DNA of 64,000 nt, taken from assembly GCA_965645245.1 (NCBI GenBank), contig OZ287067.1, positions 2,604,001-2,668,000 of the forward strand. Direction: 5' to 3'. This document shows, piece after piece, positions 29,924 through 56,700 of this stretch (positions are counted from its first letter, which is position 1; the number at the start of each line of letters is the position of its first letter). The stretch is from Massalongia carnosa. Taxonomy: Eukaryota. The translations under genes were made by a program, and so were the position numbers. Below the pieces are notes generated by a model, which had not been told where the DNA came from, did not search any database, and saw only the letters and a program-made list of their open reading frames with translations.

Positions 29924-31282
29924 ATGCCTTTCAGCACCGCTCTTACCCGACAGCTAGGGATCAAGAGTAGGGACTTCCAAAGTCCAAGCAGCAGACACCG
30001 TGGCTGATGTTCTGCAGTTCCTGTGGTTCAGGGAGGAATGCAATGGTGTGCTCCTTTGACAACTTTAGACCCACTGTAGTGCTGAAAATACATCCAAAGG
30101 ATCGGGTATGCTGAACTCGCAAGTGCTGTCAGCAATGCCGGAGGGCTTGGAATAGTAATGCCTCCCATTTCCGTAAACTCAAGCAGTCATATCATTGATT
30201 CTGACAACCGACATCAAAGCTCACAGCTCTCACGCAACCCTCCCCGGACGCCCTCCGCCATGAAATCCAAAGATGCCGGAAGATGACCCCAAACCCCTTC
30301 GGCGTGAACCTTACCCTCCTCCCGGCTCTCGTCCCGCCGGACTATCGAGGCTATGCCCAAGCCATCATTGACGAAGGGATCACGATTGTCGAGACAGCCG
30401 GGAACAGCCCAGGCCCTGTGATCCGCCAGCTGAAAGCGGCCAATTGCACCATCCTGCATAAATGCACCACCATCCGCCACGCGGAGTCGGCCATCAAGCT
30501 CGGCGTCGATTTCCTCTCCATCGACGGTTTCGAGTGTGCGGGGCACGTAGGCGAGTCGGACATCACGAACTTCATTCTCTTGGGCCGCGCGCGACAATCC
30601 CTCAGCGTGCCGTTCATCGCCTCCGGTGGGTTCGCAGACGGCCAGGGGCTGGCGGCGGCGCTGAGCCTTGGCGCTGAGGGCATCAACATGGGCACACGCT
30701 TCATGTGCACGATCGAAGCGCCCATCCATCAGAACGTGAAGCAAGCGATTGTCGATGCGCAGGAAACCGATACGGAGCTCGTGCTGCGGCGATGGAAGAA
30801 CACGACCCGGCTGTTCGGGAACAAAATCGCCAAGCAGACTGTGCAGGCCGAACGCGCCAGCACCAGCGGAAAATTCGAGGACGTCGCGCCACTCGTGAGC
30901 GGGAAGCGAGGGCGGCAGGTCTTCATCGACGGAGATGTGGATTTCGGCGTAAGTTCCCACCCCTCTCCGCGTCAATCTTTCCGAGGCGCCGCTAGGCTGG
31001 ACTGGACTGGACTAATGGAGTATTGCTGCCAATAAGGTATGGACAGCCGGTCAAGTGATCGGCCTGATCCATGATATCCCCTCGTGCAAGGAGCTGGTGC
31101 ACCGCATCGAGCGCGAAGCGGAGGAGACCCTTACGAAAGCCTCCGCGCTCATCGTCGGCTCAGGGGCCGAGAGGCCTGCAGCCCTGGAATCGGCGGCGCC
31201 ACCCGCGAGAGGCGGCACAGTGGGGCAGCATATGAACAATCCTGGCGCGGAGGTCTGGGGTGTGGGCAAGAGTAAACTGTAG
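29924..31282 (+). CDS. Nitronate monooxygenase / 2-nitropropane dioxygenase family protein (multi-exon), C-terminal SKL
   Basis: Motifs PVVQGGMQW, SNAGGLG, PFGVN, IDGFECAGH, ASGGFADG, GINMGTRF and WTAGQVIGLI; short 5' exons are bounded by GT-AG. Confidence 0.93.
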
Positions 31283-31567
31283 AATGGAAAAGTTGCATAT
31301 GCATATTCCAATTTTGAGTGTCTGGTTTTGAGATTTGAGATTTATTTTATTCTTTCTCCCTCCAATCCCGCTTCTGGATGTAGAATAAAAAGCCAGTGAT
31401 CGCTCCATGCCTGATGACCTGATGACCTGCTGCATAAACCTCCCCCCCCCCTTCTGAAGTCTTGCTAAGAAAGGCAAGTAACTAACGTAGCTCCAGTTGC
31501 AAGTATGGTTCCACCCAACCCCAAACCCCCCTATCGCCCCCCCTTCTTTCCACCCCCATCGGCTCTC

Positions 31568-31833
31568 TTACCGCTCAATAAAGAAGCCAAAGCCGACGAA
31601 GACGCAGACGCAGCCTTCAGGGCGCCCGCGCGCAGGAGCCGGCGCTGCTTGAGATAATTCTCGACGAGGTTCTCGACGCTGCCACGGTCGTGTTTGGGTT
31701 TCCTATTTGGGGAAGAAGGAAAGGGTTGGGGTTAGTGGTTAGTTGGCTTGATTTTAATGGAGAGGGAAGGGAAGGGGGGAGACAAAATGATCCCTATCTG
31801 CTTCTTCTGCACGCCAGCTAGATTATGAGGAAA

Positions 31834-31868
<35 letters not shown>

Positions 31869-32555
31869 ACGCCCCCCTTCCCATAAGAAAACACACATAC
31901 CTCAAGAAATACGCCCTCGCCCTCCTCATCCTCTTCTCCACCCTCTTCACCACCTCCAAGCTTATCACATTCGGGCTGAACACCTTCACCCACATCTCCA
32001 CGCCCGTCGTCATCAATCTGCCGCGCAGCAGCACCGCCGTATCGGTCCCCCGCCGCCGCACGCTAAGACATACGCCCGCGAACGGATCGCCGGTCTTGAA
32101 CGTGGCGAGGAGGACGTCCCCCGTGCGGGGCGTGTCCGGGTTGTTGCGCGCGAACAAGCGCGTGCGGGTGCCTGTCGGGTCGAGGGTGGCGAGATGCGCG
32201 GTTTGGGCCAAGGCGAGGGGGGTGGAGAATTGCGCGCGGGCGGAAGGGGGAGGGGGGTAGGTCTTGATTTTCGGTTGGGGGGAGGCTGGGGAGAGAGAGA
32301 GAAGGGAAAGGGGGGGGGTTAGGTTGGATGGATGGATGGATAAGGGTACATGGAATGGGGGAGGGAAAGGGAGGGAAGGGGGGGGAGAAGGGGAGGCGAA
32401 CCTTTCTTATCTGAGAAAGAGGAGAAGAAAGGGTTGTGGGGGGGAGATGATGGTTTTTGGTGGGTGGAGAGGGCGGAGTAGAGGCATCGAGCAGGCGATT
32501 GGAAACAAGAGGATCGAAAGTGAGGATGTTTCCAGCAGCTCAGAAGAGGGCGCAT
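31568..32555 (-). CDS. IMG1: Mitochondrial ribosomal protein bL19m (multi-exon)
   Basis: Motifs GDVLLATFKTGDPFAGVCLSVRRRG..LLR..GVEMWVKVFSP and RRARAYFLR/KPKHDRGSVEN; presequence-like N-terminus. Confidence 0.88.
31837..31866 (+). repeat. (GA)n microsatellite in an IMG1 intron
   Basis: Run of about 15 GA units. Confidence 0.9.
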
Positions 32556-32823
32556 GGTGGGGAGGTGTGAAAGCTAAATAGGTAGTCGAAAAGATTGAAG
32601 AGAGGGAAGGTTTTAGTTTCGGAGCTATTCGTCTCGCTAGAATATTTTTCCGAGAGCGCTCTTCCCTGTACTACTCCGTAAGTTTAACTACTCTCTAGCT
32701 TTCAACAAACGACACATTTGTTCAATCCCCCATCTCTCTCTTGTCCCTAGAGAAGGGGGTCATACACACCTCCTTCAGCAACTTCAATTAATCTACGAAC
32801 TCGGTTCAATCGTTCAACCAACC

Positions 32824-34118
32824 ATGTCCCCTCTCCGTCCTCCTCTCCTGTCGTCGTCGTCGTCCTCACTTCCCCGTCTCCAGCTCCAATTCTACAACCT
32901 CCGCGCGCTACAGCCGCAACAAACAGCAACACGCACCATAACCACAACTCCGTCCCGAAGAAAAGGTTCCTTCCCCCCCCCCCCCACCCAAAAGAAAGAA
33001 AAAGAAAGAAAAGACAAGCTAACCCAATCCAACCTCCCCTCCCTCCCCCAACAGGCGGTCCCCTCCCAACCATCCTCCCCACTCAATCTACGCCCCTCAA
33101 CGACCTCCTCAACACCTTCCGGACCAACATCTTCCTGCCCGCGCACCTCCACAAGTCCCAACGCGACCTCATCTACCGGCGCAAACACCAACACCTGCTC
33201 ACAGGCGACGAGCCCGCGACGGCCTCGATCGCGGGCGAAATTGTGCAAATGCGCCCGTTGGACCGGCTGCGCGACGAGCCCGCTACGGACCCGTCGATCG
33301 CGCGCGTCCTACAGCTGATGCGGGAGACGGGCCATTGGGGCAATTTGCCGGGGTTTTTGGCCGGGCTGCAGACGGCGCGGAGGAAGCCCAAGGGATGGCA
33401 GATGGAGCGGGTGGCGCGGAAGGCGTGTTTAGTGGGCAAGGAGGGGTTGGTGGTGCAGTGCGTGCGGTCGGCGGAGATAACGGGACTGGGGCTGTGGGAG
33501 GTGGGGGTCGTGAGGGAGTTGATGTGGGCGGCGATGCGGCGGGCGCAGGCCGGAGCATGGCGGAGGAATGCGGTGGAGCGGGGCTTGCGGTTCGCAGAGA
33601 TGGTCTGGGTGTTGCTGCAGGATCCCAAGCAGGCCGTTCCCCAGGGGTCCGGGCTCGTGAATCCAAGGGGCAGGTCGGAAGTGGTCGGGGTGCTGTTGCA
33701 GCTGCATGCGGCCATGGCGATCGTCACGCAGGGCGGGACGGAGGGGGTCAAAGTGCAGGATGAAGGGAAAAGGGTGGGCAAGTACGTGCGATTGCTACTA
33801 GCGTCATGGGACAATGCGAGACTGGGAGTCACGGAGAAAGGGGACGACCACGAGGCGAATCGACAGTTGATGAGGTGGGCGCCGGTCTGGCACGGCATGA
33901 AGCTGGCGCGAGAGGTGCTGGGCAAGGACTCATCGCTGGGGCGCGAGCTCACAGTCAAGTTGTGTCAAGTGGAGCCAGTCTTGCAGAAAGCGCAGGAGAG
34001 GGTATTATTGGCGCAGACCGCACCGGCCACGCCGGCGGATCTGGCTCATCAGGAAGAGGGCATTCGCCGCGGCGTGAAGGTGTACGACGATCTATCTGCA
34101 GCTACCGTCTCTTCGTAG
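32824..34118 (+). CDS. Hypothetical protein, probably mitochondrial (one intron at about 32966-33053)
   Basis: Arg/Ser/Leu-rich presequence-like N-terminus; the spliced frame LNDLLNTFRTNIFLPAHL..QRDLIYR continues into the 291-aa ORF; head-to-head with IMG1. Confidence 0.75.
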
Positions 34119-44740: not shown

Positions 44741-47700
44741 CTAATCAATCAGTTGCCCCAGAATCAAGCTCTGAATCACAAACTCATTGCCCACCACCCT
44801 TGGCCTGCCCTGGTCTCCCTCCCCCCTACCCCTCTTCCGCTTCCTCCCGACAGGATTGCCCCCAAACAGGACTTTCTCCGCCTTCTTTTCGTTGTCGTGG
44901 CTATATATCCAATCCCACGGCTTCTCGTCGCCGTTTGCTTGCGCTTTGGCGATAGCTTTAGCGGCGGCCTCCAAGCTCAATGTCCGAGAGACTCGGCTGG
45001 CGCCCAGGCCATGCGTGATGAGCGGGTGGAATTTCATGGTGTCCTCCTCCGATTTGCTCATGATGAGCAGTACCGAGGCGCCGTCGAGAGGTTTCGGCCG
45101 GCAATTCATGACATGTGTAAGCGTTGCCGTATTGGGGTCGTACGGCGGCAAAACACGGGAGTGTATGGCGCCGCCGAGGAAGGCGGACTCGCCGGCGGGA
45201 AGGAGGTAAGGCTCCCAGGGTAAGACGCGCTGGTTGGAGATGCAATCGTTTACCCAGCGGGTGGCGAGGCAGGGGATGCCGAGCGCAAGCGCTTGAATGT
45301 ATTTCGCTTTGCGGCAATGCTTGTCGGCGATAAGGCAGGTGAAGCCAATGCGTTTGGCAGCCACCGTGAGGCGGAACGCAACATCGACAGGCTTCTTAGG
45401 GCTACATTTCTCCTTGGAAGGTGATGTAAACTCGAGAGCGGGGAAATCGAAGAGTTCGTCGAAGCCATCGGCGACGATGCGGCCACCGTTAGCGAGTATC
45501 TGCCGCGTTGCGCGCTCACGGGTTTCGGCGCAGGCAATGTTGGTGATGGCAAAGGCTGTGTTTGTAAACAGGTGTACGCTTGAGCCTGTCGTAGATTTTG
45601 TTGAGCGCGAGTTGACGAGCGATGACATCGACTTTTGAAAGCCATGGGAAAATGGAGTAGGGGGGGTAGAGGGGCGCTCCGAAGGGGTTTGCGGCCTTTT
45701 TGAAGGTTCGGTTATGCCTACATTGAATGCCCGATCTTTGAAACTCGCCCATAGTGTCTTATTCAAATAGACATCCTTTATGGGGATGGACATCACCTCA
45801 GCAGGATCGCCTTCTCCGGATTGGGTCTGTTTCAGAACCACGGTGACCGCTGTGTGGCCATATACATCTGTAAATGCCAAGGGCAGGTTTTGCCCTTTCA
45901 CGCCTCTTCGCCTTGAAGGGGTCTCTAGGTCTGGTTGCCCTATTATAGGCTGGGGATCCGAAAAACCCTGGATTGTGTAGGTATTCTTCTTCCGTTGATT
46001 ACCAGTATCGATCTTGATGTTATCCCCAATTCGTAATTCTAGTCTTTTGATAGCAAACGCATCAACATCATCCTTCTGGCCGTCATCGAATTCTATCCTA
46101 TACCGAAGTACTGGGCCGCATACGACTGCATGACAAGTGGCCGGAAAATACCCAGGATCGTTTCCATTGAAATGCGCGAAGACTCGATAGGGTGCAACCA
46201 GGGCCTGATCAGTAATACAGCTTTCGGAAATGCCTCCAAGACTTACGTGTTTCTCGATATGGGGGGACTTCATGGCACTTGTAACATCTAAAGTAGCCTT
46301 CCCCTTGTTTCTCTTCATGTTCTGTTTAGTGTCCCCTTTTACTAACGGCCGAGGTTTTCGCGGTCTGCCTCTTGACGCGGATTTTGGCTTCGGAGCTGTT
46401 GAAATACGAGACCTGCTCTCTAACCCTTTTGGAGTTAGGGCAACTCCTATGTTCTTATCCGTTTTTCCCAAAGCAGGGTAGTCGACAGCAAGTTCATCTG
46501 TAGCCAGAGCATCCTGGTTTTCATCTGCATTCACAGCGCTCGGGCCTACCGCGCGGAGGGGAAGCGTTCCCGGTTTAGATTCTGCAGATACTACGACTTG
46601 TCCACTGTTTCCACGTCGCCTCTTTCTGGCAGGCCCAACTGGACTGGATCCATCAATCACGTTTTGAAATTCAATATCTTCGTTTGTGAGTAGGCTGATA
46701 TCGACATCAACTTCGCCTATCGCATCACGAGGAGATGTATCAACCGCGATCTGGGTTAAGGTTTTAGGGAGGACTGGGTTGAAACTCAAAGGGGGCCCAC
46801 TCTGGAAAGACGGATCGCGAGAACGAGCCGAATGTGACTTAGACGGCGACTTCAAGAAATTTGTACGCGCAGTTTCAAATAGTGATGATCCAAGTGACGA
46901 GGGAGGATTCAATAGCCCAGGCTGTGTTTTAGATGTGGATTTTGTACCAGTATGAGGTAATTGGATGATAGCAGTAGATTCCGTGGCAGTAGAATGTCGT
47001 CCAAAATTCTTAATGGCAGAGCTAGTCTCCGGTATTGTGCTGAGCAACGATGAAGAAAGATTACCCGGTGATGACCCGACGAGAAACTTCTCGGAATTTG
47101 CTTTTACTTGGAGTTCCAGTTCATCATGCGCAGATCCCGAGCGCAAGATCTCTTTGGTCGAAGGTTCCATGCCTTGGCTGGCTCCTTCCAAGATCCTACG
47201 ATTCTCACCTACGTTTGCAGCCATTTGGCCGTTACATTTCATTGCGAGGTGTTGAGGCCTGGATTGATGTGGTGAAACGTCACCGGTAAACCCGGCCACT
47301 ATGGGCTGCGATGAGGTTAGCTGGCCGCTGGTTGGCGGAGAGACCATATCAATGGGAGAGAGGGTGGAAGCTGGGTGTGATAACTGACGAGAATCAGGGC
47401 CTATGGCTGAATCATCTGCTAGGAGTTTACCCTTGTGTACCTCCGCCGGGTGTTGAGATGTGGCAGACGCGGGAAATGCTTGAGAACCAGGGATGAGTAC
47501 CTCGGATGACGCTGATAGCACAAGACGCTTGGTTACTGGCTCGGGCCCCTGGCGAACCTTATCACTCCATTTTGTGGGCTGCGAATCTGCAATAGCTGAA
47601 GTTTGCGTTCCTTCTGAATTGGGTAAATTTTTCGTTACATTCATGCTTTGGCGCTGACTCCTTGGAGGCTTGGGATAACGAGGAGATGAGCTGATGCCAT

Positions 47701-49292
47701 TTAGATTGGCAGAGCGCGAAGGACTTGACTGTGAGCCAGTTATAGCACTCTTTCGCTGATTATGCCTTGAGATTGTCACAGGCACTTCGACGTTCTCTTT
47801 ATTATCCTCCGCTAACTCGTCACTTTCTTCGGCATGCGAATCCTCACAGTCTTCTTCATGCTCTGTTTCGTCTTCCGTAACGTTGCCCTCCACAGGTAGG
47901 TCATCAGATGTTATCACTGTTTCGCTCGCCGCTTTATCAGCGTAATGTTTTGAGGCCCTGCCTTCACGCTGTCTAGGAATCCTCCCCCTGCCACGCCCGC
48001 TCGAAGTTGGCCGGATTGGCGCTGTTATCCCGACAAACTGTCCCCTTGCTCTTAGGTCAATTTTCCTTTGGTTTCGGCGCCTACGAAGCTGACTGTCGTC
48101 TGACTCGAAATCCTCGTCAGAGCTCACGACGACAGATACATCTGCCAGAGGTGCTGATTGTCTGGCTATTCGATCTCTCTCCGCCTGAGATTCTTTCATG
48201 GAGATATAGATCGTCTGGGGTTCGGTCACAGCGCGGATTACAGGCGGACCATTTATTCTGGGAGGGGATGACATGGAACTTGCGGTTATTGGTCTCCGCA
48301 CGTTATACATATCGGGCGAAGGTCTCTGAGATAACCCATCGGATTGGATTATGTTGGAAAATGGAGAGGATACCGCTTGGGTAGCCTTGAAAGCTTGACT
48401 CGAATTCATCATAGCATCAAGCTCCAGCAGCTGGCCTGCGAAAGGATTAAGAGGCAGCCTGGGAGTAGAGTCTCCCCGGGGTGTTATTTCGCTAGAAAAA
48501 TCAAGCTTTTTCCCACCAGTAGCCGGAGTTTTGGGTTGCTGGAAGCGCTTGGACTCTGGGTATATCTCGGCTCGAACATCAGCGGCGGGAGAGAGGGGAT
48601 CCATATCATCATTATTGTTCGTAGAGGGAGGCTCTTCAGGATCAGTTCTAAACGGTTGTTCTAGCGCACCCACGAGATCGACATATCCAGTTTGACCCTG
48701 ATGATAGCTACATAGTGAAGTTTCGTCAAGATCGCAAGTCCCGTCACAGACTTCTAATGTTGTTTCCTTTGCACTCTCGAGCTTGTTCTTAATTGCGAAC
48801 TCATGAAACACCCGCTGAGAGACTGGCTGAGTGTCCCCGTCTGGTTGACTGTCGCCGGTAGTCATTTTGGTCTTCGACAAATCTGCTACTGTACTTGACA
48901 GCTCAACATCCTCTTCGCAAAGACCCTGTTGTGAGTCGGTTGAGTGGCGCAAGAAGGCTGATGGATTTGGTGGGGGAACATGAGATGGTGATTTGCGTGG
49001 AGTGATGGTCGCACTATCATGGCGGTCTTTTTGTGTTGCCGCGGAACTTGCCTTTTGTTTTTTTGACGATGTAAGTAGACTCCCCGATGCTGATGATCTC
49101 GTCGCTTCGACGATGCATGACACGTTAAGTGTCCGGGACTGCAGGGTTGATGGCGTCAGCTCACGCGTTAAGGAACGCTAGGCTTCGGAATGAACGTTAT
49201 CTTACCGCAGGAGGGGTAAAGAATTCATCTTGAATTCCCAATGCTAAAGCCTTCAGTTGAGATATTTGTACACTATCGATTTGAGTTGCCAT
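44741..49292 (-). CDS. RAD9: DNA-damage checkpoint mediator Rad9/Crb2/53BP1-like (intron 49139-49205)
   Basis: SQ/TQ-rich N-terminus, Tudor-like region (VFAHFNG..YFPATC) and C-terminal tandem BRCT (RKAKYIQALALGIPCL..W..YLLPAG); upstream exon 49292-49206 splices in frame. Confidence 0.88.
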
Positions 49293-50863: not shown

Positions 50864-52607
50864 AAGTGCACAGTCTGTCTTAAGTATCACTCGAACCAGG
50901 TCCAGCTACCAGACTGCTGTGATCTCGATGATATTCGGGTCGCGCCATCTTCCTAAAACCCCTTGGGCTAGGATTTTTATGACTTGCCGGAATGTCTTCT
51001 GCTGCGTTGTTCAGTTTTGATGATGATGTATTCATACTCCGATATGTCACCGGCCGTAGGCCGGCCCATGCAGGCAAAGCTATCTAAGTTATGTTACATG
51101 GAAACCCTTTTTCAGGTGTAAAAACCATATCCCTTGATACCTGTCCGATGTGACACCGGGTCGACGTCGGACAGGAGACGCAGAGCGAAAATTATGTGAG
51201 AACTGTGACGCCTTGTGAGATAAGGAAAAGATAAGTGAAACTACTGTTAATTGTACAATAGTGTAGATGCCAGTGAGAATTGGGTCAGTAGACCTGTTTT
51301 CATTAGCCAAGTAGTTAATATCTTTAGAGTTTTTGATGTTTCGGTCAGCTGTTGATAGTTGTTCGTGCCAGCGGCGCGAAACATCTGTTCTCTATTGTCA
51401 ATAAGTCTACAGAACATAATTACGTGTTCTGGAGTTTGTCTGTGCCAGCCACATGGGCAGGCCGGTGAGGTGACGGCGGGGACCCGTCGCTGGTAGAGGA
51501 AGTCAGCTAGACCGATCTTACCGGTGCGGATCTGTGTTGTCAGGGCGCTTTCTGCCTTTTTTAGCAGCGTGTGTATTTTCAGTCCTTTTTTGCTCAGTGG
51601 GACTGATTGCGCTATGGAGGGTTCGGTGACGCGATTTTGATATGCGCGTTCAGTTTTGTATTGGTGGATTTTATGCTTATAAAATTTTACGAAGATCGGA
51701 TAAACAAGGCAAGCATGGATTACTGCAGGGCCAGCTCCATTGCATCTTTCTCATCGAATAAAGGAAGAAAAATTGGAGTTGTTGAAGTACGATGGAATAA
51801 AATCACGGATGGAAAAATCGAAATGCTGAAGCAGTGGAGAGGCGATCGAGCAATATGGCTACTTCATTTTCTGCCCACTCGGTGTCCTATCTACTGTAAA
51901 TACCCCCAAGAAAATATCTATCTGCCAACCGAGATCTCTGTCCGCATCATGAAGATATGCGGCTACTACTCTTAGAGTTTCCTAAGACTAGTCTTCAGTA
52001 GAGAAATAGAAGCTGCGAATCTGGTTTCCACATCTTATTGGCTTTAGCATCAAGATCACATCAGATGTTATAATCTTAAAAAGCTTAGTTCATTGTTTAA
52101 TGCATATTACTTCGCGCCTTACTGTTCACGGCTCGCTGGATTCTGAACGATACCCAACCTTTTTATAAATGCCTTCAAGGGCTCTATCAGCAATAGAAAC
52201 TAACCACAAGGGCAATGCCCAAAGTATATGCCGTAGAGCTAATGACATAGATTCACAGTCTTAGCTGCCACAACACAAGCATTACAGGGCAAGCCTTTGG
52301 TGCTCGATCAATACATTGGAACGTGACTCTTTGGATCTTTAGCTAGAGAATGGTCCGAGACTTGATGGCGCCTAAAATAGGGCGTAATCGCATAGAGGCA
52401 GAACATCCCATATCTTGGCTTATATCGAAATTTAGGCCGGCTGCAGCAGATGTGTAAAAACATAATATACCATTTCGACTATCGGTAAGGCGCAACTATC
52501 TCAGAACAATCGATTTCAAGGTAAGAAGCTCTTTCGCTGCAATATCAATATGGAAGAAATATCCCTTAATTGCAGCGGAAGCGATTGAGAAACAAGATAT
52601 GTAGCGA

Positions 52608-52640
<33 letters not shown>

Positions 52641-52968
52641 TCATTAAGCGTATGCATCCTTAGGATATGACGCTGCGACTGCTATTTATGTACATAAACA
52701 ACAGTCAGGAAGTGGAAACCTGGCCCCCAGGGTAAAACCACTCCCTTTTATTCCATATTGAATGCAACGAGATCGTTCTTCTACCACGCGGTGCATACAC
52801 CCAGATCTTCAAGCGCTAGGAATCCTATAGACCCGATGAACTAGACAGTGTATCTCCACACGTTCGACGAACATTCTCTCTCTTTAACCGTTTTGACTCA
52901 ATAGATGATAGACTGGCCATGATTGATCGAGGGCAGATCGTGGTGTCGTATAAATGAAGATGTGAAAA

Positions 52969-53177
52969 TGTGGCCATTCCGAATGAATGGGCTTTTTCGA
53001 TGAGGTGAGAGGCTTCCGCCTGGGGGGTGTGGCCATTCCGACTGAATAGACTTTTTCGATGAGGTGAAAGGCTTCCGCCTGGGGGGTGTGGCCATTTCGA
53101 CTAAATGGGCTTTTTCGATGAGACTTTTTCGATGAGGTGAAAGGATTCCGCCTGAGGGTGTGGAATGAATGGGCTTT
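52969..53177. repeat. About 3.3 copies of a 59-nt tandem repeat inside the retroelement
   Basis: Units start at 52969, 53028, 53087 and (partial) 53159: TGTGGCCATTCCGA.TGAAT.G.CTTTTTCGATGAGGTGA.AGGCTTCCGCCTGGGGGG. Confidence 0.92.
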
Positions 53178-53258
53178 GTATGCCTTCGAAGTGGTGAATG
53201 ATCAGTAGAGACGTTGATCATTCAAACGGCCACCGAGGTGGGCTTCAGCGTTGGCGAT

Positions 53259-53330
53259 GATCAGATATTGGCCACCTCCGAGGAGGTGTTGATAGCCTGC
53301 ACCACGTAGAGGTTTCTGACCTAGCAGGCC
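53259..53330 (-). ncRNA. HDV-like self-cleaving ribozyme
   Basis: P1 GGCCUGC/GCAGGCU (G1-U37 wobble); P2 GGUCAGAA/U(A)UCUGAUC; P3 ACC/GGU; L3 UCUACGU; single-pair P1.1 U-A; CAA strand; P4 CACCUC/GAGGUG; J4/2 GCCAA with putative catalytic C at 53271. Confidence 0.82.
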
Positions 53331-53729
53331 GATATGTAGCGATCCCAGGGTAAGATAAGTAGGAAATAATTAAAGGCTTTAGGCTTGCTATTAAGTGTCA
53401 CTTACAGCTGCTAAAACCTTTTAGAATGCTCAGATATATAACACTCTTAGAACTATATGAGACATAGTGTCTTTCATTCTAAATACTCTGGCTTTGAAAA
53501 AGATATAGGAATAAGGTTGTGGCACAAATCTAATCAAGCTAGCTAACGTTAGCTGCCGCTGTCATATTTAGTTCTGGCATAATTTTATGTTAGTGGCTGT
53601 GCTAATTAGTAGTTAACTTCACGTACCCTCGGATACCTGTCCGCCAGCCAAGGGGCAAACTCGATAAGCCAAGTTAGGGAGATCTTTGAAATCCACGGCC
53701 TCAGCTACCGTTTCAAATTACCATGCACA

Positions 53730-56700
53730 ATGGAGGATCTTACAGGCTTGGACTGGACGGTCTCACACCTAACCCCCAAAGTGCAGAAGCCTCCACCCAT
53801 GAACCCAACATCCTACTATTCTAGCCTACGGCCTACTCCTCCTCTCTCAGGGAGATCAACGCCCTCTGCCGCTGAGACTTCTGGGTACGCTTTTAAACCT
53901 CCGCCAAAACCAGCTTCAAGAAGTAATAGTTCAACGCCTGCAAACGATAGCTTCGCCAACCTGGTTACCTTCAATACTCCTCAGTCTAGCGCCAACGGCT
54001 CCTCGTTGAAGAACGTGTCTTTGCATGATCAGCAAAAAAAAATCCTGGAGAAGAGGGAAAGAGAACAAACTTTACGGAACAAACAGCTTGCGCCAGTTTT
54101 TGGTCACTCAGATGGAGATTTCTTGGAAAGCCTAGGCAGTGGAAGGAGGACCCCCAACAGAATTACTACTCCGCCAACTTACACTGGTACAGACGAGTAC
54201 GGAGGGCAGAAGCTGTCGAGTGCAATCAACAAGCCATTTATTAGCATTGGAAAAGCATCACGTCATCCGGATAGTAAAGCTTATAAAAATAGCGAAGTCG
54301 ACCTCCTCTCGGTCTTTGACTCACCTTCACCGGCTCAAAAATTGAACAGGTTAAGTACGGACAAACTTAGTTCCAGCAACGGCTATGGCATAGACATCAA
54401 TGGAGGGTTTCCTGGAGATTTGGCTTCCTCGGAGCCTTTACATAAATCAGACGGAGCAAGTAGAGGTCCTACTTTGGCTCTAGATGATGATCCGTTTGGG
54501 TTGGGCACCACGGAAACCAAAACTGCAGATAGAACTGAAATCGCGGCCCAATCTATCGATGATGATGATATCTTAGGTCTTTTGGGACGGCCAGTCTCAG
54601 ATTTCCCTGCGATACAAGAGGACAAAAAGTGTTCCGAGGAGCCTATTAATGTTGACATGTCCGATCAAATGGATCATGCAATGGCGGAATTGATAGATAT
54701 GGGATTCGGTCCGGAGAAGTCAAAAGAAGCTCTGGAAAGCACAGAATCAGGTACCAACGTACAAGCCGCCATTGGCTGGCTCCTAAGTCAAGCACACGAG
54801 GACGCAGTGAGGAAATCTAAGTCGTATAGGAAGCAAGAAACCAAGGATTTTGAACTCGAAGCAGGCCAGCCGAGAATGGCACCGCGAAGAACGAACCCAC
54901 GGAGAAGTCAAAGTTCTGGGAGCGACACTGTGAAACCAGCATGGCTGCAGAAGCAGAAACAGCAAAATGCAGATCAATGCCGCCAAGAAAGTAGATCTCC
55001 TGTGAATGGAGAGAAAGACCCCGGGAAGTACGCGGCCGAACTTGGTACCAATCTCTTCAAGACTGCAAACTCTCTTTGGAAGACAGGAACCAAGAAGCTG
55101 AACCAAGCTGTTTCAGAACTCAACTCTGATAGCGATTCCAGCCAGCCAAAGTGGATGAAAGATGTACAGTTCAGATCCGATAGTGGCAGACCAAGACTTC
55201 GAGACCCTCGAACAGAACTTTCAAGTGGGGATGAGGAGATATTTTCACAGCGGCCAGCAACAATCAGGCCGCCCAAAGTCACGGATGAGGCATTACTCCT
55301 GGAATCTAGTAATGCACGGCCACTGCGAAAGCCTACAAGACCAGGAAAGGTAGTAGCTAGCCCCTGGATATCAGGCTCTTCAAGCGACCAATCTCCTATA
55401 CTTACAAAGCCTTATGAGCAAGAAAAACCGCACCCAAAGGTTTTGCATCAGCCAAGAAATTTTGTTCAGAAAGCGAAGGTGACCAAGCAATCAGTTGAAG
55501 AGCAAGCATCCAATGCGTACATCAGCCCAGCCCGCCGGAAAAAGCCACCTCAAAAGCCTGCCCTGCATGAGCCGGATCTGCTCTTTGATACTGGGAACCA
55601 TATATCCGAACCTCGGCCGCAAGCTACGCAAACAAAATCGTCCATCCAACTAGACTTACATACCTCGCCTAAAACCTCTGCTCCAATCCGCACTTCACCT
55701 CCCACCCGAACCATCCCCCCAGTTACATCCTCCGCACTTCAAACATCAACCACAAAGCGCCAAGATGGGACATCGGCGTTCAAAAGAGGCGACTATGCTC
55801 TTGCTACAACCTTCTACAGCTCGGCTCTCTCCGCCCTCCCGCCTACACATCCCTTAACTATTGTGCTCCTCACCAATCGCTCACTCGCCCATCTCAAAAC
55901 AGGCGACCCGAAATCCTCGATTGTCGATTCCAAATCTGCGCTCTCTCTGATCGGCCCTTCTCGTGGTGCGCTCGAAACCATCGATCTTGGCGACGATGAA
56001 GGCGCTAAAGACATGCAAACCTTTTGGGCCAAAGCCATGACTCGTCAAGCTGAGGCTCTTGAGGAGCTTGAGCGATGGTCTGATGCTGCAACAATATGGA
56101 GAATATGCGTTGAAGCAGGTGTTGGCGGCGCAACAAGTATTGCGGGAAGAAATCGGTGCGAGAAAGCAATTGCGGGACCTGCTTCCCAACACTCCCGCAA
56201 ACCAAGGACCGCCGCACCAACATTACCCTCTCCAAAGCCTATTCCAAAATCCTCGGCGCTTGACGACCTCTCAGCATACCCTGCACGTTCATCAGCCTCA
56301 GTGAGTCTTTCTACCACTAGCTCGATAGAGGCGATCACGCGTCTTCGAAAAGCGAACGCTGCAGCTGAGAGGCTGGACGATGAGAAGTTCGCGCTCGCGG
56401 ACCAAGTAAGTGACCGGCTCACCCGGTGGCGAGCAGGAAAAGAGGGAAATCTGAGGGCGCTGCTGGCGAGTTTGGACACCGTGCTATGGGAGGGGGCGGG
56501 GTGGAAGAAGGTGGGGATGGGGGAGTTGATCGTGCCGGGAAAGGTCAAGGTTGTCTACATGCGAGGGATTGGGAAGGTGCATCCGGATAAGGTAATATTC
56601 CTCTCCTCTGGTCCCTTTTCCCCGAGCTTCGGGTGCTCTGGGACGGCCTCCGTCTACCGGACCTGGAAGCTTCAGGCTAATCACCCTGGATTTTAGCTAC

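Follow-up and report, generated by a model that had tools for sequence, protein, structure and literature searches.

An HDV-like ribozyme fold at the 5' end of a short non-LTR retroposon from Massalongia carnosa

The retroposon and the fold at its first base

We analysed a 64-kb stretch of DNA from Massalongia carnosa (GCA_965645245.1, OZ287067.1, positions 2,604,001-2,668,000; hereafter, the window) and found a short retroposon whose first base is also the first base of an HDV-like ribozyme fold. The fold recurs with covariation in metagenome loci, and the insertion that it heads has its boundary at G1, a target-site duplication, a poly(A) tail, a high copy number and an empty site in public contigs. 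It is very probable that a self-cleaving ribozyme sets the 5' end of this non-autonomous non-LTR retroposon, which would be mobilised by an APE-type LINE.

The insertion is 721 nt long from G1 to the last A (minus strand, 53330..52610). Upstream, one copy of a 14-bp duplication, GATCGCTACATATC on the minus strand, ends directly before G1 (53331..53344); downstream, the second copy follows the poly(A) directly (minus strand, 52596..52609), and our repeat search found the two to be 100% identical. They lie 735 nt apart and, according to a script count, are the only 14-mer direct repeat at a spacing of 300-8000 nt in the window. Their neighbouring bases are not the same, which sets the length of the duplication at exactly 14 bp. 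The tail consists of 29 uninterrupted A on the minus strand (52610..52638; T29 on the plus strand), so that both hallmarks of target-primed reverse transcription, a poly(A) tail and a perfect target-site duplication, are present.

The body of the element (minus strand, 52639..53258) has no recognisable coding capacity and ends in TAATGAAT (52646-52639) directly before the A run. The repeat search found 59-nt tandem repeats at 52969-53145. The sole ORF of at least 60 aa in the element, with 107 aa at 52898-53221, runs through these repeats and matched no Pfam family; judged by its ORFs and by Pfam, the element has no reverse transcriptase of its own. A blastn search of 50901-53500 against the window gave no second copy. 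The retroposon context explains why a ribozyme is present at this place.

Two host genes lie nearby. One encodes a Crb2/Rad9-like checkpoint protein with Tudor_3, Rad9_Rad53_bind and BRCT domains (minus strand, 44741-49177). The other encodes a UBA/TPR protein (plus strand, 53730-56696), and about 400 nt separate its ATG from the retroposon, which is located upstream in antisense orientation. The G+C content is 0.56-0.61 at 30001-34000 and about 0.47 elsewhere in the window.

The predicted ribozyme occupies 72 nt of the minus strand (53259..53330), with cleavage predicted 5' of G1 (53330), and is supported by the fold, the Rfam family RF02682, our covariance model R1 (described below), covariation in relatives and the MFE fold. 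Ribozyme position n corresponds to window position 53331-n. An earlier note on this DNA had proposed an HDV-like fold here; our analysis confirmed the fold, with the minus-strand letters exactly as given there. P1 comprises 7 bp (positions 1-7 with 31-37; 53330-53324 with 53300-53294), including a G1.U37 wobble at the cleavage site, and J1/2 is U8 A9 (53323-53322). P3 has 3 bp, ACC/GGU (18-20 with 28-30; 53313-53311 with 53303-53301), with the loop L3 UCUACGU (53310-53304). J1/4 is A38 U39 (53293-53292), after which come the CAA strand (C40 A41 A42; 53291-53289) and the 6-bp P4 with its loop CUCG (43-48 with 53-58; 53288-53273). J4/2 is G59 C60 C61 A62 A63 U64 A65 (53272-53266). All parts of the nested double pseudoknot, namely P1, P2, P3/L3, J1/4, P4 and J4/2, are present in HDV order according to sequence, alignment and a script count. 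The sequence and the RF02682 alignment also bore out the arrangement that the note had described, from the 7-bp P1 with G1.U37 through the 3-bp P3, L3, CAA and P4 to J4/2. The candidate catalytic cytosine, which it had put at 53271, stays there on renumbering as C60, in a G-C-N-A-A context that aligns to the conserved GGCYAAGA block of the relatives.

The fold needs correction in P2. The note had placed a bulged A in this helix, which proved unnecessary: GGUCAGA (10-16; 53321-53315) pairs with UCUGAUC (66-72; 53265-53259) in 7 contiguous base pairs including one G.U, A17 (53314) is a single-nucleotide spacer between P2 and P3, and U64-A65 belong to J4/2. A script count found the same geometry, with no bulge and a single spacer, in related ribozymes.

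The canonical HDV P1.1 consists of two G-C pairs. In the window copy, the only Watson-Crick pair possible in P1.1 is U23 (53308) with A38, and C22 (53309) opposite U39 is mismatched. The reduction of P1.1 to one U-A pair beside a C/U mismatch, as the note had it, was upheld by the sequence and the RF02682 alignment.

The earlier note had also called for a covariance-model search with HDV-like families. The search gave a full-length alignment to RF02682 (1-74), although the score of 31.4 bits fell short of the gathering threshold of 44 (E = 7.9e-4 on 801 bases). On the whole 64-kb window the E-value was 0.063, and the site was the top match of all Rfam families. RF00094 scored 26.5 bits at the ribozyme site against a threshold of 50, and Rfam at gathering thresholds gave no match over the whole window. 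The MFE fold of the 72 nt includes P1 and P4 (z = -2.4; 2 of 200 shuffles were as good). By themselves, the Rfam scores and the MFE fold are suggestive of a ribozyme and not conclusive. The context is decisive for the fold being more than chance, because G1 is the exact 5' base of an insertion with a poly(A) tail and flanking target-site duplications.

The element family and the AU-type relatives

Parts of this region are contained in 20 public runs, several of which are labelled lichen metagenome. We aligned the contigs of four runs (X1, X4, X5 and X6) to it at a likeness of at least 80%, and found 1911, 203, 113 and 26 contigs, respectively, on the element. According to these public contigs, the family is high-copy and occurs in at least three organisms. 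The summed contig depth in X1 at 52622-53357 was about 100-900 times that of the flanks (flanks 670-846; element bins 76,653-669,785), which is not a copy number; in X4 the depth in the element was 19-507 times that of the flanks, likewise not a copy number. In X4, X5 and X6, the highest depth of all bins was at 53266-53311. Two public RNA runs contain 0.04 of the words sampled from the region.

The contigs also mark the end of the element. In the four runs, 13, 9, 7 and 2 contigs (31 in total) depart from the element exactly at 53330, and 5, 6, 1 and 1 depart at 53331. The share extending one base to 53331 equals the expectation from a chance match of the next base. Flank agreement is 0.40-0.65 at 53330 and 0.49-1 at 53331, where two of the four values come from single contigs. 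The low agreement at 53330 means that these are different insertion loci, all of which have the boundary at G1. In X4, a contig of 9620 nt (record 9) matches 52300-52595 and, with no gap, 53331-53631, so that 52595 adjoins 53331; it represents the empty site, in which the 14-mer occurs once. The insertion in the window is thus polymorphic and young.

Among the 41 of 73 variants listed, 38 lie in 52750-53247 and three in the flanks, with none in 53248-53381 and none in the ribozyme. This subset indicates, without proving it, that the ribozyme sequence is conserved among copies of the family. Four X5 contigs follow the ribozyme sequence and then diverge exactly at its 3' end, 53259. These four contigs hint at a second element with the same ribozyme head, possibly the autonomous one.

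A scan of metagenomes with a 21-nt stretch of P2/P3/L3 gave no loci, so that the exact window family was not found in that collection. A second scan with the pattern CCTCTACGTGGT-N7-ATCAAC, which has 18 fixed and seven free bases, gave 89 loci, many of them chance matches in coding sequence. About a third of the 89 have a P1 partner 10-12 nt upstream, the GGCYAAGA junction and P2. To score these loci, we used a covariance model (R1) that was built from nine metagenome loci with the window excluded, and ran it on the window and on all 89 loci. The window site scored 46.2 bits and was the sole match in the 64 kb. Scores of 39.9-87.5 bits were reached by 30 loci, whereas the remaining loci, with the same 18 fixed bases, scored at most 26.8 bits, which leaves a gap of about 19 bits below the window site. 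One of the latter (L062, 26.2 bits) has the appearance of a ribozyme truncated at a contig end. Because R1 was built without the window and the decoys share the fixed bases, the circularity of a pattern derived from the window is removed.

By R1 score, therefore, 30 of the 89 loci are complete HDV-like ribozymes with L3 UCUACGU and J1/4 AU; we refer to them as AU-type. We fitted these loci and the window to the structure of the model (alignment A4; 31 sequences, 27 of them distinct, related rows inflating the pair counts). On the 27 distinct sequences, 93.3% of the cells pair, against 70.5 ± 1.5% in shuffled alignments (a value as high was seen in 0 of 500) and 27-45% with the partner slid. 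Both sides change in six of seven P1 pairs and four of five P4 pairs. The first P1 pair is CG in 14 distinct rows, GU in 6, GC in 3, AU in 2 and UA in 1. P2 is contiguous over 5-7 bp in 26 of the 27 (the last is cut by a contig end), with at least eight different sequences in the script count; about 1 nt lies between it and P3, which agrees with the window. The scan pattern fixed L3, P3 (except its A) and J1/4, and the relatives are uninformative on covariation in P1.1. The GGCYAAGA block is reached by 26 of the 27 distinct rows, L019 being cut before it. At the position of the catalytic cytosine, 21 of 25 metagenome rows have C; L015 and L071 have T, and in L050 the preceding G is changed.

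The earlier note had offered a mutated copy (C>T plus G>A) as one explanation of the P1.1 mismatch. This was not supported: UCUACGU and AU recur together in complete ribozymes with covarying P1, P2 and P4, and none of the 41 of 73 variants listed from the four public runs falls inside the ribozyme. Since there are 30 complete AU-type ribozymes with compensatory changes, AU is a recurrent natural state and not decay. The best explanation is that the window ribozyme belongs to a natural subtype with L3 UCUACGU, J1/4 AU and a P1.1 of one U-A pair beside C/U.

Viral contigs with the same L3 have AGG, AGA or GGG as J1/4, and none has AU (12 loci, of which about 9 are real). RF02682 placed four of four such viral relatives above gathering, at 53-77 bits. 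Among 15 AU-type loci, it placed one at gathering; 12, this one included, scored 33.6-44.8 bits, and three were not among the matches listed at E <= 0.01. Present Rfam models under-call the AU subtype, with 14 of 15 relatives and the window copy below gathering. Lacking the second P1.1 pair that the viral relatives keep as C-G, the AU subtype may be slower.

The AU-type relatives occur in several contexts. Six of them (L005, L027, L055, L056, L065 and L088) lie directly 3' of tRNA genes in tRNA arrays and have the P4 hairpin, and in all six the predicted cleavage site is at most 1 nt from the tRNA 3' end as determined by ARAGORN. One metagenome locus, L008, contains a 665-nt element (minus strand, 466-1130 of the reverse complement). 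Its first base is G1 of an AU-type ribozyme with a G.U first pair as in the window, its 3' end reads …TAATGAATA(CAT)n, and an exact target-site duplication of 16 bp encloses it. The window element (…TAATGAAT + A29) and L008 have the terminal motif in common. Their bodies are unrelated, with only a 16-nt match at chance level. No repeats resembling target-site duplications were found beside the other metagenome ribozymes, the 11-mer at L048 being an A run, and Pfam searches of 20 ORFs found no reverse transcriptase within 1 kb of the metagenome ribozymes.

In a further 15 loci (L019, L020, L022, L030, L035, L045, L047, L048, L050, L054, L058, L063, L075, L081 and L089), the ribozyme lies directly behind an A run of 9-12. 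This group is AT-rich, with a downstream GC of 0.21-0.34, and shows compensatory changes in P1 between loci. We considered these loci as 5' ends of transposons and ruled this out, because the upstream sequence is conserved between them.

A possible mechanism and its alternatives

An ORF remnant at 51247-51750 (minus strand) contains a Cys/His knuckle motif and represents the C-terminal part of ORF2 from an APE-type LINE. The remnant itself has no Pfam match. However, a 472-aa RVT_1 protein (40 member sequences) matches it at 98% identity, and proteins of about 1120 aa that combine RVT_1 with Exo_endo_phos match it at 58-60%; from these relatives it follows that the fungus carries APE-type LINEs. 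The 3' end of the element has no significant similarity to the 3' region of this remnant (51300-50950); the local score was 20, which 60 of 300 shuffles reached. We found no autonomous LINE with this ribozyme or this 3' end, and the window contains only the one LINE remnant.

The following scheme could account for the element. A source copy would be transcribed, either by read-through from upstream or from its own promoter. The ribozyme would cut the transcript 5' of G1, so that the element RNA starts at its own first base. An APE-type LINE would supply its reverse transcriptase and endonuclease in trans, and these would use the 3' end, …TAATGAAT with poly(A), in target-primed reverse transcription. 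Copying up to the cleaved 5' end would restore a complete ribozyme in the new copy, with a 14-bp duplication on either side. In this scheme, it is catalysis and its rate, the mode of transcription and the identity of the LINE that we infer.

The fold might instead be conserved but cut negligibly or not at all. The G1 end would then result from initiation at an internal promoter, and the structure would serve stability, the binding of reverse transcriptase or protein, or a promoter function of the DNA, as in Pr77. The loss of the second P1.1 pair and the sub-threshold Rfam scores fit this explanation. In L1Tc/NARTc, moreover, the same first 77 nt are described as both internal promoter and ribozyme, so a 5' end at +1 alone is no proof of cleavage (PMC3383444). 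We nevertheless consider a non-cutting fold improbable. Thirty unrelated loci retain the four helices, with compensatory changes, together with L3, CAA and the catalytic-C context, the AU subtype lies exactly at tRNA 3' ends in 6/6 loci, where only cleavage makes sense, and a ribozyme with a single-pair P1.1 is reported as active in L1Tc (PMC3185411).

Slightly less probable still is an active family ribozyme of which the window copy has been killed by mutation. The window copy does depart from its relatives in that J4/2 has GGCCAAUA where 24 of the 25 metagenome rows reaching it have A-A-G-A, J1/2 has 2 nt where most relatives have 3, and its 46.2 bits fall in the lower part of the ribozyme group under R1. 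Against a dead copy, the insertion is young, as its perfect 14-bp duplication, its uninterrupted A29 and the empty allele in X4 indicate. The variants listed (41 of 73, from four runs) include none in the ribozyme, so that the copy appears to match the common sequence of the family, and AU in J1/4 is the normal state of the subtype. Chance, in which the HDV descriptor would be matched fortuitously by the 5' end of an ordinary retroposon, is the least probable explanation and close to negligible: the window-level Rfam E-value is indeed only 0.063, but the independent model scores the site about 19 bits above decoys with the fixed bases, and the cleavage predicted from the fold falls on the first base of the element, both here and in L008, and at tRNA ends.

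A self-cleaving ribozyme that defines the 5' end thus remains our preferred explanation, and it would tie a fungal HDV-class ribozyme to a job. As the element is young, polymorphic and high-copy, its 5' processing is directly testable. The explanation would also account for an abundant repeat in the annotation of these fungal genomes. The AU-type loci appear to show that a core with one Watson-Crick P1.1 pair is kept by selection in many lineages, which bears on the need for P1.1 in the HDV fold.

More tentatively, with chances that we put somewhat below even, L3 UCUACGU with J1/4 AU could define a distinct, uncatalogued HDV-like subclass that works with a single U-A P1.1 and is missed by standard Rfam. 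Its vehicles would be tRNA arrays of phage-like contigs, conserved AT-rich loci, and short retroposons with TAATGAAT and a simple-repeat tail that are high-copy in lichen-associated fungi. Retroposons of this last kind would then be headed by many of the fungal HDV ribozymes that have been described with "widely variable gene associations".

Comparison with known systems

HDV-like ribozymes at the 5' ends of retroposons, including non-autonomous elements, are known, and so are fungal HDV-class ribozymes. Our search of the literature for HDV-like ribozymes with retrotransposons, LINEs and SINEs in fungi and lichens found no case at a fungal retroposon 5' end and none for lichen fungi.

Li and Breaker (2017, PMC5640933) have reported 230 fungal HDV-class ribozymes in 26 species, which cleave in vitro. 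They describe "widely variable gene associations" and make no mention of transposons (0 occurrences). Their fungal variants have one extra nucleotide, mostly C, between P2 and P3 (PMC5640933). The AU-type relatives have exactly this one spacer, which in the window copy is A. A C-G first pair, as in the fungal variants, is common in the AU-type relatives (14/27), whereas the window copy has G.U (PMC5640933). P4 of the fungal variants is described as partly replaced by loop E, in contrast to the plain 6-bp P4 hairpin of the window copy with no evident loop E (PMC5640933). Set against these three features, the window copy agrees only in the single spacer A17, and its cleavage-site pair and P4 do not agree.

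The best Rfam match is RF02682, the Faecalibacterium prausnitzii type: its P3/L3 block, ACC UCUACGU GGU, is identical, and its CAA and G-C-N-A-A junctions agree with those of the window copy. The RF02682 consensus has A-G-G in J1/4, giving U-A and C-G in P1.1, whereas the window copy has A-U. The RF02682 family is bacterial or phage-borne, unlike the retroposon-borne window copy. Theta ribozymes of gut phages are described in the same context, directly 3' of tRNAs, as six AU-type relatives (PMC10879173). They are, however, minimal and without P4, whereas the six relatives and the window copy have the P4 hairpin (PMC10879173). Unlike in the theta context, no tRNA lies beside the window copy.

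The scheme of a ribozyme-defined 5' end is established for R2 and SIDEs (PMC3414825) and for L1Tc/NARTc (PMC3185411, PMC3383444). The R2 SIDEs and R2/R1 hybrid SIDEs of Drosophila are, like the window element, short non-coding non-LTR elements (529 bp in D. willistoni), with an HDV-like ribozyme at the 5' end and a middle of no known origin (PMC3414825). In R2 SIDEs, only the 5' ribozyme and the 3' end are described as required, and the 3' end is one used by an autonomous element (PMC3414825). The poly(A) tail, and a 14-bp target-site duplication in the R1-site hybrids, are as in the window element, and a ribozyme module common to different element bodies is a further likeness (PMC3414825). 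SIDEs are reported as site-specific in 28S rDNA, cut from Pol I co-transcripts, and are described as rare (PMC3414825). The window element differs from them in being dispersed, high-copy and fungal, with another ribozyme core (L3 UCUACGU, J1/4 AU).

L1Tc/NARTc and ingi/RIME of trypanosomatids are likewise dispersed poly(A) retroposons with target-site duplications, and in them the LINE and the non-autonomous element have in common a ribozyme of about 77 nt, which forms the exact 5' end of each (PMC3185411, PMC3383444, PMC4035085). The host belongs to another kingdom, and the L1Tc DNA also acts as the promoter Pr77 (PMC3383444). P1.1 is described as "one or two base-pairs" across the HDV-like family (PMC4908430). 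L1TcRz has a single-pair P1.1, as is predicted for the window copy, and yet it cleaves co-transcriptionally (PMC3185411).
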